Positions 10,455-15,483 of a stretch of 32,000 nt of DNA are shown here, piece after piece; within the stretch, counting starts at the first letter, position 1, and each line of letters starts with the position of its first letter. The stretch is from Nitrosopumilus ureiphilus (GTDB taxonomy: Archaea > Thermoproteota > Nitrososphaeria > Nitrososphaerales > Nitrosopumilaceae). A program made the position numbers and the translations under genes. The stretch lies in NCBI RefSeq assembly GCF_013407185.1, contig NZ_CP026995.1:1868954-1900953 (forward strand). Reading direction: 5' to 3'. The notes under the pieces were generated by a model that saw nothing but the letters and a program-made list of their open reading frames with translations, searched no databases and was not told the origin of the DNA.

Positions 10455-10595
10455 CTAGTGATCTTTTTCTTTAGCATTGGCTATTAGATTCTCCAATGCA
10501 TGTGAACGGTTGGCAAACCTTTTCTTCTTGATTCCATCGTCAATCCATTTTATAAGATCCGCATCAATTGACACTGAAAATTTCTCCTTCTTCAC
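10455..10595 (-). CDS. ribbon-helix-helix (CopG/Arc/MetJ-type) DNA-binding protein, GTG start
   Basis: 46-aa ORF below the ORF-track cutoff, translated by hand as VKKEKFSVSIDADLIKWIDDGIKKKRFANRSHALENLIANAKEKDH. It shows the classic beta-strand plus two-helix pattern and is a paralogue of 14785-14922. Confidence 0.6.
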   Translation of the reverse strand: MKKEKFSVSIDADLIKWIDDGIKKKRFANRSHALENLIANAKEKDH

Positions 10596-11594: not shown

Positions 11595-13145
11595 CTAACC
11601 AACTTTAACAAATTTTCCTACAGACGGAACATCATTCCCGTCAAGAATGAATAACATGTAATACCCCGGAGGCGCAAATGTGTTATTTTTTGGACTAGAT
11701 ACGGTCAAGATATTTGCTGTTTGATTTATAATTGGCAACATAAGACAGCGTTGATCCATATTGTTGTTGTGTGTTGTAGATGATATCTTTATCAAAGAAA
11801 CTTTTTGAATACTTGATGCATCATCTGTATGTATTTCATAATTATTATTGTAAGACATTGTAGGTAGTTCTATATCCTGAATTTTGGGTCTTGTAGGATT
11901 ACATTGTAGTTTTGGAGGAGTTATAATTTCAATATTGTGCTCAAAATTCTCTTTTGGTGCAAAAACGGATCTTACCCAATTATGACCTGTACTTCCAGCA
12001 ACCACTACTTCTCCACTTGGTAAAAGAACTGCAGAACCATGGTACAGCCTATCTCTTTTTAGATATGACACAACTTTCCATGTTTCATTACGTGGATCAA
12101 ACAAGTGAACTTCCCTTACTGCAATATCATTATCATCAGCTTGTCCTTTTGCAGCACCATTTGTAACTAAAACTGTCCCATCAGGTAAAAGTATGGAATC
12201 ACACAAAAAGCGGCGTATATGTTCAGTTGTTTTTTTCCAACCTGAAGAATTAGCAGGATTATTTAGATCAGCTGTAAATATTTCGGGAGTTTGTGTTGCA
12301 TCTGTATTTTTATCAGGATGTAACTTGGTACTTCCACCAACAAGTAGTATCTTGGCAGTATCTGTTTCATGTTCAAGGGGTAAAAGTACACAGGAGCCCA
12401 TTCCAGGATATGTTCGGGTTCCTGGAGTTTCTGTTTTAAATTTGGCATCAGTAATAAATTTTTTTTCTGCAATATTCCAAATATGTGTAGTTTCTTCTGA
12501 ATGCACAAAAAGAGTTCCACCCGGCAAAACCTGCAAAAATGGATACATTTTGATTTCATCAATAAACTTTACAGGAGTTGAGAGTTTATTGGCTACAGGA
12601 TCAAATATCTCATAATCTAAATTCATGGCACCAAATAATGCATGATGTGCATGTGAATACGTGCCTGATACTATCAATGCTTTGCCATCAGGTAATGTAA
12701 CACATGTGGGATACCATCTTGCTTTTGGCATTCCTGGTTTGTATCTTTGCCATCGTTGATTAGGATCAATATCGGGATTAGGATCAAAAGTATGAATATC
12801 ATGATCTGCTGCAGGTTTTTTTATAATTTTTAACACTAATTGCAGAAATCCTGGTAGAGACAATACAATTGTTGCAGGATGATTATATGTGGACTGGCCA
12901 CCTGCAACAAACAATCGTCCATCCGGAAGAAAACAATGACCAGAACAAAACAAATTCCTTCCTAGTTTTGGATTAATTGGATTACGTGGATCTTCAGGAT
13001 CCCATAGACTAGATTCACCTTTTGTCCAGTTCCAAATATTTTCATGATCACCAGAAAACAACAATACTTTTCCAGTTCGTAAAAGTGCTAGATGTACAGC
13101 TATGGATTCTACTTCATATGTAGCATTCTGATGATCTATTTCCAT
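11595..13145 (-). CDS. copper radical oxidase (galactose oxidase / glyoxal oxidase-like; Kelch beta-propeller plus C-terminal E-set domain)
   Basis: 516 aa. Family ligand contexts are all present: FCSGH (Cys of the Tyr-Cys cofactor), ARWYPT, RLYHGS and TTHNNNMDQR. No N-terminal signal peptide. The start overlaps the tyrosinase stop by 10 nt. Confidence 0.85.
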   Translation of the reverse strand: MEIDHQNATYEVESIAVHLALLRTGKVLLFSGDHENIWNWTKGESSLWDPEDPRNPINPKLGRNLFCSGHCFLPDGRLFVAGGQSTYNHPATIVLSLPGFLQLVLKIIKKPAADHDIHTFDPNPDIDPNQRWQRYKPGMPKARWYPTCVTLPDGKALIVSGTYSHAHHALFGAMNLDYEIFDPVANKLSTPVKFIDEIKMYPFLQVLPGGTLFVHSEETTHIWNIAEKKFITDAKFKTETPGTRTYPGMGSCVLLPLEHETDTAKILLVGGSTKLHPDKNTDATQTPEIFTADLNNPANSSGWKKTTEHIRRFLCDSILLPDGTVLVTNGAAKGQADDNDIAVREVHLFDPRNETWKVVSYLKRDRLYHGSAVLLPSGEVVVAGSTGHNWVRSVFAPKENFEHNIEIITPPKLQCNPTRPKIQDIELPTMSYNNNYEIHTDDASSIQKVSLIKISSTTHNNNMDQRCLMLPIINQTANILTVSSPKNNTFAPPGYYMLFILDGNDVPSVGKFVKVG

Positions 13146-14365
13146 CGTCTTTTTGTAAATGGTGACAACAAAAATGCAGATGTTCTAGCAAGTGCAACAA
13201 ATGGGAGAACGATAGAATATTTCATGATTATTTTAAATGGTTTGTTTTTTCTCATTTGGTCTGCAATGGGAGGGGAAAATTTGTAGTAAATGTTCAAAAT
13301 AAATTCAAATGTTTTTTTGAATTTACTTTTTAATACAACATCATCTCTGAATTCTCGCAAAAACTGAACTGGTGGTTCTAATTCAGAACCATATGCTGCT
13401 GTTGCAATAAAACATCTTTGTCCTGAAGGATTAGGAGTTGGATTTGGAGAAGGGTTAGATATAGGCCATCCACTGCTTCCAGATACATCATCGTAAACAT
13501 AGTCTAGGGCTTCAATATCTAAAACATCTCTTGGTCTTCGTATGTCTGATGCGTCAATTGAGGGCAACAATGGCGTTGCATTACTTATGTTAGTAAAAGA
13601 GTCCCCTCCATCCCATGGCCACATTCTATCATCTAATTTGTGACCGACATTACCTGTATTGTTGGGATTATAGTTATCAGTTCCAGGATGAGTCAGTTGC
13701 CATTTTGCCCAAAGCCTGTCAATATTTGCATGGTGTAAAAAGAAGATAGGATCATTAGGCGAGGTCATTCGGGTCATATGTCCTCCAACTCTCATGTGGA
13801 CAGTTCCATGAGGACCTTCCAATGCAGGTCTAAAACCATGGAAGTTATTTTCATTAAGGGAATTATTTGCCTCAGTTGCAGGAAGTGTTGAAGGATTCAT
13901 GCTATTGTTTCGAAGTAGTGTGGTTCCATGATTACCCTGATCAAGTTGTGGATCTACTTGCCATCCATCAGGGTTTTGTGGTGTTGGAGCTTCAGAAAGA
14001 TATCCTGAAGTTTGCAATCCCATGGTACCCAAAAAATCAACAGTAAAGACATCATCAGTATCAGATGAAACTCCAGATTCCCACTTCCAATAGGGTAAAG
14101 AAACATCAGGATCTACTTCCTGCAGTGCCTTTTCAAATCTTAAGATGAATTCTCTATGCCATGCAAGAAATGCAGGACCGCCATGTCCGCCGTCCCCACT
14201 GGCTGCACCCAGTCTGCTAATAACACCATAATGAATTGCAACAAACTCATCATATACATTAGTAGTGTGCCCAGGTTTTACAGTCTTCTTTAGTGTGATT
14301 ATTGCATTCATGAGTTTTGCTTTATCTGGGGCAGGCAATGTTGCAGCATTTCGTCTTGTATGCAT
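13136..14365 (-). CDS. tyrosinase (type-3 dicopper oxidase) with Pro/Asn linker and C-terminal CFIATAAYGS module plus hydrophobic tail
   Basis: 409 aa. CuA: IHYG...HGGPAFLAWHREFILRFE. CuB: HGTVHMRVGGHM...DPIFFLHHANIDRLWAKWQ. Linker SNPSPNPTPNPSGQR, then CFIATAAYGSELEPPVQFLREFRD and a hydrophobic C-terminus. Confidence 0.85.
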   Translation of the reverse strand: MHTRRNAATLPAPDKAKLMNAIITLKKTVKPGHTTNVYDEFVAIHYGVISRLGAASGDGGHGGPAFLAWHREFILRFEKALQEVDPDVSLPYWKWESGVSSDTDDVFTVDFLGTMGLQTSGYLSEAPTPQNPDGWQVDPQLDQGNHGTTLLRNNSMNPSTLPATEANNSLNENNFHGFRPALEGPHGTVHMRVGGHMTRMTSPNDPIFFLHHANIDRLWAKWQLTHPGTDNYNPNNTGNVGHKLDDRMWPWDGGDSFTNISNATPLLPSIDASDIRRPRDVLDIEALDYVYDDVSGSSGWPISNPSPNPTPNPSGQRCFIATAAYGSELEPPVQFLREFRDDVVLKSKFKKTFEFILNIYYKFSPPIADQMRKNKPFKIIMKYSIVLPFVALARTSAFLLSPFTKRRWK

Positions 14366-14565
14366 TAGCTGTTTTCTCCTTCATCTATGATTGATTTTGC
14401 AAGATCTTCCAGTGTAGAAAATTCTCGATAAGGTAAAACATCATATGCAAAATATTTTTTTGTGTCATCATCAAAATTGCATTGTATTTTTTCATCATCA
14501 ATATACAAGACATTTGTATCATATTCAGCTTTGATTATTTTGTTCTTGTAAGATTCTGATGACAT
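14365..14565 (-). CDS. small acidic Tyr-containing protein, first gene of the copper-oxidase cassette
   Basis: 66 aa. Its stop overlaps the tyrosinase start (TAATG). No motif recognised. The position is analogous to tyrosinase helper ('caddie') genes, with no sequence similarity claimed. Confidence 0.5.
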   Translation of the reverse strand: MSSESYKNKIIKAEYDTNVLYIDDEKIQCNFDDDTKKYFAYDVLPYREFSTLEDLAKSIIDEGENS

Positions 14566-14660: not shown

Positions 14661-14741
14661 CAAACAGGATAACAAAACCTGTTACAATTAGTTGAGAGTT
14701 CAAACCTGTTGAGGTTTGGTTGTACGAGTCTCGAGGTTTGT
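14661..14741. promoter_or_regulatory. cluster of palindromic/half-site motifs upstream of the copper-oxidase cassette
   Basis: AACAGG-N9-CCTGTT (14663-14683); a perfect 18-bp palindrome CAAACCT-GTTG-AGGTTTG (14701-14718); and a third AGGTTTG at 14734-14740 next to the palindrome CGAGTCTCG. The cluster lies 100-175 nt upstream of the ATG at 14565. Confidence 0.45.
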
Positions 14742-15483
14742 TAAAATGAAATGTTTAGAATAAAAATGAAAATTTAATTTTTACTTATCCCTCATCCATT
14801 AATTTTTGAATAGCATATTGAATACAATGCGATCTATTTGCAAATATTCTTTTTTCAATTTTTTTGTCTATCCACTCAAGTTGATCTTTTTCAAGTGCTA
14901 TACTTACAGGGTTTTTTTCCATTTTTCATAATTCCATCATTGAATTATGAATGATTAATTTCTAGTAACATTTAACTAGTATTAATAATTATTAATATTC
15001 ATTAATAATGGTTAATAATCAATATGATGAAAATGAGATGAAAAAGAAACATTTGGAATTGGAAATTAGACTAAAAGAATTTTTCAAAAATTACAAAACT
15101 CATTCTGAGAGACTCTCTAAAAATCAGTGATCATAAGATATCTTCAAAAAATTATTCCACAACATTTTCTATCTATGAAATCACAAAACGAGCTTTGTTT
15201 ACAGAGTTCATTATGAATGAAGATGAATCAGAAGGAATCATAATTTGTGAGAAATGTATGACAATATGGAAAAATTATTATGAATATTTATCAAAACACT
15301 TTGAGAACATAATTTTATATTTTAGATTGGAAAACATTCATCATAATCAGGCATAGGATTTATGAAAATCGTTCTCATGTTATTTACAGAGTTCTTCATT
15401 TTAGAATTACGATATCCAAAAAACCAGAATTTGTTCAAACCCTAATAGGTTTGGTTTAGTGAACCGTGGCAGGTTTGAACTCT
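14695..15483. repeat. 14-bp inverted repeat pair (AGAGTTCAAACCTG at 14695-14708; its reverse complement at 15470-15483) bracketing a 789-bp segment
   Basis: Exact 14/14 match read directly. A third partial copy, GTTCAAACC, at 15433-15441 forms CAAACC-N6-GGTTTG. The segment contains the RHH gene and short broken plus-strand ORFs. Confidence 0.6.
14785..14922 (-). CDS. ribbon-helix-helix (CopG-type) DNA-binding protein
   Basis: 45-aa ORF below the track cutoff: MEKNPVSIALEKDQLEWIDKKIEKRIFANRSHCIQYAIQKLMDEG. It shares VSI...WID...FANRSH with 10455-10595. Confidence 0.6.
   Translation of the reverse strand: MEKNPVSIALEKDQLEWIDKKIEKRIFANRSHCIQYAIQKLMDEG

Follow-up and report, generated by a model that had tools for sequence, protein, structure and literature searches.

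A leaderless CFI-box tail on a Nitrosopumilus tyrosinase: a candidate cytoplasmic-side tether or assembly module

The tyrosinase locus and its C-terminal domain

A stretch of 32,000 nucleotides (nt) of Nitrosopumilus ureiphilus DNA (contig NZ_CP026995.1, positions 1,868,954 to 1,900,953), referred to here as the window, was analysed computationally for a gene that joins a tyrosinase to a C-terminal domain of the CFI-box family. The host genome is a single 2.17-Mb contig of ~32% G+C, and the gene lies in the middle of a minus-strand three-gene unit running from an open reading frame (ORF) of 66 amino acids (aa) through the tyrosinase to an oxidase resembling GlxA. The stop codon of the 66-aa ORF and the tyrosinase ATG share 1 nt, an arrangement of translational coupling, and the start of the GlxA-like gene overlaps the 3' end of the tyrosinase gene by 10 nt. 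The features, in window positions, are:

14365..14565, minus strand: NE1242-family small protein, 66 aa (profile match to PDB 2JV8)
13136..14365, minus strand: tyrosinase-CFI gene, 409 aa (ORF with PF00264 and NF041770 matches; stop codon 13136-13138)
13466..14365, minus strand: catalytic type-3 copper domain, aa 1-300, without signal peptide (PF00264, AlphaFold2 (AF2), Foldseek)
13415..13465, minus strand: flexible Pro/Asn/Ser linker, aa 301-317 (low predicted local distance difference test, pLDDT)
13211..13414, minus strand: CFI-box-CTERM domain match, aa 318-385, from invariant Cys318 (NF041770)
13139..13240, minus strand: last helix, aa 375-403, with basic flanks, the 'hydrophobic tail' of a first-pass annotation made from the sequence alone (summed Hessa scale, dG; alignment to paralogues)
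11595..13145, minus strand: GlxA/galactose-oxidase-like radical copper oxidase, 516 aa (NF052501, PF07250, PF09118)

The catalytic part is a type-3 copper protein by both family match and metal ligands: PF00264 (Tyrosinase) matches aa 36-223 with E = 6.6e-41, and the six copper histidines of CuA and CuB (H45, H61, H70, H186, H190 and H212) are invariant across 66 homologues. The AF2 model of the core has pLDDT values above 92 up to residue 300, and Foldseek aligns this core with the Bacillus megaterium and Streptomyces tyrosinases at template-modelling scores of 0.77-0.79. Assignment to the MelC2 equivalog NF047834 was rejected (170.1 bits against the required 450).

After the linker, the protein continues into a tail that NF041770 (CFI-box-CTERM; curated cut-off 40 bits) matches at aa 318-385, over profile positions 1-65 of 69, with 75.9 bits and E = 1.5e-21. 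The domain opens at Cys318 in the motif CFIATAAYGS and ends 24 aa before the stop codon, that is, in C-terminal position. The first-pass annotation had proposed a 'CFI-box' C-terminal domain, and a profile score so far above the cut-off bears out that assignment; the strings that it quoted (SNPSPNPTPNPSGQR, CFIATAAYGSELEPPVQFLREFRDDVVL, YYKFSPPIADQM and IIMKYSIVLPFVALARTSAFLL) are all present at aa 303-409 (13139-13459). Within the domain the Cys, a Thr four residues after it and a Tyr are invariant, the motifs R-x-x-R-D and Y-Y-x-x-S-P are near-invariant, and the residue preceding the Cys is highly variable. The linker differs among orthologues in both length and sequence. A literature search returned no paper naming 'CFI-box'.

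The protein has no N-terminal signal peptide, as the same annotation had observed, since only five codons separate the upstream stop from the ATG and the N-terminus is hydrophilic (maximum hydropathy of 0.98 in a 12-aa window over the first 40 residues). The segment TRRNAATL at the N-terminus was considered as a twin-arginine translocation (Tat) leader and rejected, as it belongs to the conserved tyrosinase fold (pLDDT 94-98) and aligns from MelC2 profile position 1.

The tail is modelled as a self-folding four-helix module of ~85 aa, attached to the enzyme through a flexible linker. AF2 prediction of the tail alone from 113 sequences (pLDDT 87.3, pTM 0.72) placed the helices at aa 319-324, 330-344, 350-373 and 375-403, and a Foldseek search of this model against PDB gave no match (best E 1.7). 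In the full-length prediction, the linker at aa 301-317 has pLDDT values of ~50-57, falling below 50 at 309-316, and the tail helices reach only 73-78.

These models bear on two possible roles of the tail that concern the attached enzyme directly. As a latency lid, the tail would cap the active site until removed, in the manner of the fungal, plant and Verrucomicrobium pro-tyrosinases; C-terminal extensions do act so in other tyrosinases, and the tyrosinase of Candidatus Nitrosopumilus koreensis has been engineered by deleting its C-terminal extension (PMC5722948). We regard this role as extremely improbable, because the linker is disordered and the same tail is found on unrelated enzymes; furthermore, AF2 gives no confident placement of the tail on the core, and the pro-tyrosinase lid family PF12142 scores 14.7 bits, below its cut-off. 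The N. koreensis enzyme is active both at full length and after removal of the extension (residues 304-415) (PMC5722948). Judged by its residue numbering it appears to be of a non-CFI type, since residues R293, H294 and P303 fit a P0058-like sequence after a one-residue shift. Alternatively, the tail could process itself: the invariant Cys, which is the first residue of the domain and is followed four residues on by the invariant Thr, would attack the preceding peptide bond by an N-to-S acyl shift, as in Hedgehog/intein or N-terminal nucleophile (Ntn) proteins, and so release or transfer the enzyme. Such cleavage is hypothetical, and we consider it very unlikely given an all-helical fold unlike Hint or Ntn, the lack of a structural match and the high variability of the residue before the Cys.

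A leaderless and anchorless clade of CFI-box tails

The tail is the CFI-box domain of a distinct leaderless, anchorless clade. In what follows, class I denotes canonical CFI-box proteins with a signal peptide and a distal transmembrane helix, and class II the short tails of this clade. Searching the genome with the NF041770 profile yielded ten places, all above the cut-off: eight canonical proteins, one fragment and the tyrosinase, which is the only class II protein of this genome. The class I fragment (C1:480555-480773, locus L010) is without the Cys motif, has a truncated transmembrane helix and is probably a gene remnant. In each of the eight canonical proteins, a Sec-type signal peptide leads into a variable passenger, which is followed by GGGC-LIATATYGSELAPQVQQLRELRDN..., a helix of moderate hydrophobicity (VKVAITPMISSLSILNYV), an acidic loop and then a strong transmembrane helix before the basic end. 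The tyrosinase has neither the signal peptide, its N-terminal hydropathy of 0.98 comparing with 1.6-2.4 in the eight paralogues (19-aa window), nor the distal transmembrane helix with its basic end. Its tail of 92 aa (versus 120-130 aa) stops where the canonical acidic loop would start, and its last helix aligns to the first, non-anchor helix of the paralogues.

The hydrophobic end reported by the first-pass annotation therefore exists as a segment, but it is weak (Kyte-Doolittle hydropathy 1.68) and is not the membrane anchor of the family. Its dG, taken as the summed Hessa scale over the best 19 residues in kcal/mol, is +4.8, with an Arg at the centre of the helix; this compares with 4.8 to 7.1 for the homologous helix of the paralogues, a median of +5.3 (range 1.1 to 11) for 50 related tails, 0.1 to 2.6 for the true transmembrane helices of the paralogues and -2.8 to 0.4 for their signal peptides. 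The helix is preceded by a basic cluster (MRKNKPFK) and followed by a basic end (TKRRWK), with a net charge of +4 before it, versus -2 to 0 in the paralogues, and of +2 after it.

A search with the tail alone returned a tight group with at least 57% identity to the query tail and tails of 87-97 aa. The passengers in this group comprise two kinds of tyrosinase, a tyrosinase with FN3, a PF16656/PF25608 protein, five subtilases, a papain-like protease and others, including a family built on a domain of ~140 aa without assigned family. Searching 1.84 billion representatives added glycoside hydrolase (GH)-like enzymes, Zn-ribbon proteins, in some of which the class II tail comes after a Zn-ribbon (CxxC) domain, and the GlxA-like oxidase P0262, which is 31% identical to the GlxA-like protein of the window and carries its own leaderless CFI tail. 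The clade thus occurs on at least ten passenger types, nearly all of them leaderless: an N-terminal hydrophobic segment is found in none of the full-length members of the tight group and is missing from ~88% of the nearest 100 representatives, and independent members of each enzyme family share a consistent leaderless N-terminus. More distant tails mostly belong to proteins with a signal peptide. All class II examples tested score above the NF041770 cut-off, and the CFI-box family as a whole amounts to 11,679 representative clusters (50% identity) with a match to the tyrosinase tail. The view of the tail as a surface or extracellular module accordingly holds for most of the family, including the eight paralogues, but not for the separate clade to which the tyrosinase tail belongs. 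The carriers of this clade almost all lack a leader and the distal transmembrane helix, which comes close to the motif being common in cytoplasmic proteins, the case that the first-pass annotation had named against a localisation role; their cytoplasmic location is itself a prediction.

The split between the two kinds of tail was examined in a maximum-likelihood tree of 66 tails and 80 columns, whose rows were picked by nearness to the query and include related, non-independent sequences, and from which three near matches with hydrophobic N-termini (P0215, P0239 and P0255) were left out. A single change separates the 42 leaderless from the 24 signal-peptide rows; the corresponding branch has a support of 91/69, appears in 93% of bootstrap trees and was equalled by none of 500 label shuffles. 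Within the leaderless clade the tails do not track passenger family (a tyrosinase, for example, pairs with a subtilase at 100/89), which indicates exchange of the module between genes. The clade extends beyond Nitrosopumilaceae, as shown by a carrier contig with 59% G+C, and the class II tail was found in 2 of the 61 sampled genomes of that family. Among 21 tyrosinase-CFI proteins, the mean pairwise identity is 69.1% for the tail and 51.8% for the catalytic part, the tail being the more conserved in 94% of pairs.

Stand-alone CFI-box proteins of ~100 aa that start a few residues before the invariant Cys (P0219, P0231, P0237 and P0277) occur in metagenomes, as do proteins with two CFI motifs, one of them internal (P0233, P0263, P0265 and P0275). 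The CFI domain is hence not strictly a C-terminal appendage.

Cellular side and possible role of the tail

The tail is probably neither a sortase-type cleavable sorting signal nor a transmembrane anchor, and is very unlikely to be an active-site lid. We tentatively favour the possibility that it serves as a membrane tether or assembly (oligomer) module on the cytoplasmic side, and we infer both this side and the binding of a membrane or partner. The enzyme would stay on the cytoplasmic side, kept by its tail against the inner face of the membrane, within an oligomer, on a common docking partner, or in more than one of these states; contact would be made through the last amphipathic helix with its basic flanks.

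The cytoplasmic side is the most likely one because the tyrosinase, its NE1242-type partner and the radical copper oxidase are all without export signals; neither a signal peptide nor a transmembrane helix was found in the 66-aa protein or the GlxA-like protein. A composition classifier trained on the exported and cytoplasmic proteins of this genome (cross-validated area under the curve 0.92) scored the tyrosinase at 0.25 and the GlxA-like protein at 0.13, versus at least 0.997 for held-out class I passengers. By the positive-inside rule, the basic residues that flank the helix in this class (+4 on its N-terminal and +2 on its C-terminal side) would suit a helix bound to the cytoplasmic leaflet, and the Zn-ribbon domains found among the passengers are typically cytoplasmic. 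There is also precedent for cytoplasmic tyrosinase-like enzymes with leaderless helpers in GriE/GriF and NspE/NspF. The genes around the tail at four other class II loci are unrelated or housekeeping, with no conserved neighbour, dedicated partner gene or sortase among them; a dedicated processing enzyme, whose co-occurrence the first-pass annotation had raised, was found neither at these loci nor in the rest of the window. The presence of the class II tail in only 2 of 61 genomes, together with the lack of a conserved neighbour, makes a dedicated secretion machine unlikely, whereas a tail that is more conserved than its enzyme and whose phylogeny ignores passenger family points to a shared interaction partner or surface.

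Several observations weigh against a cytoplasmic-side module. The passengers are mostly of exoenzyme or surface types, namely S8 subtilases with propeptides, papain-like (C1) proteases, GH-like, M10 and M64 enzymes, with FN3, PKD and He_PIG domains and an amidase with a peptidoglycan-binding domain among the further passenger domains, and the Pro/Thr/Asn-rich linkers resemble the stalks of archaeal surface proteins. In class I proteins the homologous domain is extracellular, and ammonia-oxidising archaea normally keep their copper oxidases outside the cytoplasm. For other class II passengers, the composition classifier gave medians of 0.1-0.9, which are intermediate and not clearly cytoplasmic, and the binding of the tail to a membrane is only predicted from its sequence.

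Most of these points fit a leader-independent export or anchor signal, in which the class II tail would be read by general machinery or insert by itself, leaving folded exoenzymes outside the cell and tethered by the tail. Nearly all passengers belong to families that typically act extracellularly, and their leaderless N-termini are consistent within families; the linkers are rich in Pro and Thr; sister tyrosinases fused to FN3, PPC or P-domains are likewise leaderless; and the extreme conservation of the tail is what would be expected of a recognised signal. Moreover, when read from the C-terminus, the tail bears a loose resemblance to a signal peptide, with a basic n-region, an h-region of moderate hydrophobicity and a polar end. 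TatC is present in the genome, with no cassette component carrying a twin-arginine leader. However, we know of no leader-independent export route of this kind in archaea, no transmembrane helix is predicted, neither machinery nor a neighbouring gene was seen to co-occur, the distribution is patchy (2 of 61 genomes), the tyrosinase and GlxA-like protein are cytoplasm-like by composition, and Zn-ribbon passengers exist. We therefore consider such a signal, the main rival to the cytoplasmic-side module, rather unlikely. Framed more specifically, as a C-terminal signal for an export or surface-tethering route independent of N-terminal signal peptides, by which ammonia-oxidising archaea and some bacteria would move folded exoenzymes such as tyrosinases, radical copper oxidases, subtilases, papain-like proteases and glycosidases out of the cell, the proposal is unlikely.

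A pure oligomerisation or docking module without any membrane link would resemble a dockerin, assembling enzymes on a common partner or as homo-oligomers on either side of the membrane. This would accommodate the occurrence of all four combinations of signal peptide and transmembrane helix among 176 non-redundant proteins (both, 24; signal peptide only, 20; transmembrane helix only, 34; neither, 98), as well as the stand-alone, internal and repeated copies of the domain. Tails of 82 aa on Dehalococcoidia-type proteins with a signal peptide lack hydrophobicity (dG 10-14), tails cluster by lineage and not by passenger, and the conserved polar residues (C, T, R-x-x-R-D and Y-Y-x-x-S-P) suggest an interaction or ligand site. 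We judge pure docking quite unlikely, as the partner is hypothetical, only one class II protein exists in this genome, and the class II-specific gain in hydrophobicity and basic flanks points to lipid, not protein.

CFI-box-CTERM is a very large family, catalogued but unstudied and with no solved structural relative. Our analysis indicates that it is not uniform, one clade having shed both signal peptide and membrane anchor, with a tail that is under stronger constraint than the attached enzymes and has moved among at least ten enzyme families. The function of this tail is directly testable by simple reporter fusions and bears on where ammonia-oxidising archaea place their tyrosinase and radical copper oxidase.

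Genomic setting and comparison with known systems

The small gene upstream of the tyrosinase encodes an acidic protein. An ORF of 59-77 aa lies directly upstream of the tyrosinase in all six Nitrosopumilaceae tyrosinase-CFI loci examined, with invariant positions that include Y6, K7, I22, D23, D32, Y46, L52, L55 and D61, and its profile matches PDB 2JV8 ('uncharacterized protein NE1242', Nitrosomonas europaea) at E = 2e-10 over positions 3-62. In both bacterial loci inspected, from N. europaea and a gammaproteobacterial metagenome-assembled genome, an NE1242 homologue likewise lies 17-40 nt upstream of a leaderless tyrosinase, and these tyrosinases end in PPC-like repeats. No such small gene precedes the non-CFI tyrosinase of Nitrosopumilus sp. 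b2 or the short tyrosinase type. Because it pairs with the PPC-tailed bacterial tyrosinases and not with the latter two, the small protein goes with this lineage of tyrosinases as a partner, whether or not a CFI tail is present, and the orphan structure 2JV8 gains a genomic context. The candidate identities MelC1 and known Pfam families were rejected for want of a match; by analogy, the invariant Tyr46 (motif PY) might play the part of the caddie tyrosine. No paper naming 'NE1242' was returned by a literature search. At the two bacterial loci (L038 2399-2992 and L039 2429-2911), the gene of a 160-197-aa signal-peptide protein precedes the NE1242 homologue, one of the two signal peptides having an RR pair in its n-region; this third gene might be an export or carrier component without counterpart in the archaeal cassette.

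The GlxA-like protein scores 212 bits against NF052501, below the equivalog cut-off, and also matches PF07250 and PF09118. It recurs with the tyrosinase: the two genes overlap here and are two genes apart in Nitrosopumilus sp. b2 (L037 425-2017). The remaining genes of the window are housekeeping or unrelated, for example aconitase, the subunits of Phe-tRNA ligase and PdxS/PdxT. The G+C fraction is 0.376 in the cassette region (window 12001-14000) versus 0.30-0.33 in the flanks, and the three genomes sampled from the same genus yielded no tyrosinase-CFI gene; together these are consistent with an accessory, possibly acquired cassette. No convincing repeats or att-like sites were seen around it, and a viral origin was rejected because no PHROGs match covered the tail when the tail, the small ORF and class II examples were searched.

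Two paralogous ORFs of 45-46 aa encoding ribbon-helix-helix (CopG-like) proteins flank the three-gene cassette on the minus strand (14785-14922 and 10455-10595; 42% identical, E = 1e-11), and the upstream one (14785-14922) could be a regulator of the cassette. A short palindromic element, GTTCAAACC-N-GGTTTGGTT, is present in two copies (window 14698-14721 and 15433-15456), one of which sits between this ribbon-helix-helix gene and the cassette; the element could be a terminator or an operator. A copper-regulon palindrome known from elsewhere in this genome was rejected as a candidate, matching the window no more often than expected by chance and nowhere near the cassette.

Among known tyrosinases, the closest in catalytic fold are the Streptomyces MelC2/MelC1 caddie system (for example, PDB 2ZMX) and Bacillus (Priestia) megaterium tyrosinase (0.77-0.79, as above). 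Like MelC2-type systems, the locus encodes a leaderless enzyme with a small helper gene just upstream, but the helper is unrelated to MelC1 and has neither a Tat leader nor a His-rich copper site, and MelC2 is without the C-terminal module in which the tyrosinase described here ends. Tyrosinase-CNK of N. koreensis belongs to the same archaeal family, with ~415 aa and a C-terminal extension of ~110 aa described as aggregation-prone (PMC5722948); judged by residue numbering, this extension appears to be a beta-rich P0058-type domain unrelated to the CFI-box. NE1242 and the adjacent N. europaea tyrosinase share with the locus a clear small-protein homologue, gene order and spacing, and a leaderless tyrosinase with a C-terminal add-on, but there the enzyme ends in two PPC-like repeats instead of a CFI-box, and a third upstream gene encodes a protein with a signal peptide.

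With respect to the tail, MinD/FtsA-type amphipathic helices and tail-anchored proteins are similar in being leaderless and in carrying one moderately hydrophobic, basic-flanked helix in the last 35 residues. The tyrosinase shows such traits only in part, its helix being borderline (hydropathy 1.68, dG +4.8, central Arg); it differs in that a conserved, folded domain of ~55 aa precedes the helix and that the helix is too polar for a predicted transmembrane segment. No genuine Get3/ArsA was found in the genome, only a 25-bit P-loop match to PF02374. Finally, the canonical NF041770 members share with the tyrosinase tail the same hidden Markov model, the Cys-led CFIATAAYGS-type motif, R-x-x-R-D and Y-Y-x-x-S-P, and a C-terminal position after a low-complexity linker. 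They differ in having a signal peptide, ~30 extra residues and a true transmembrane helix with a basic end, whereas the tyrosinase tail has none of these and instead has basic residues clustered ahead of a last helix of greater hydrophobicity, in a separate clade.

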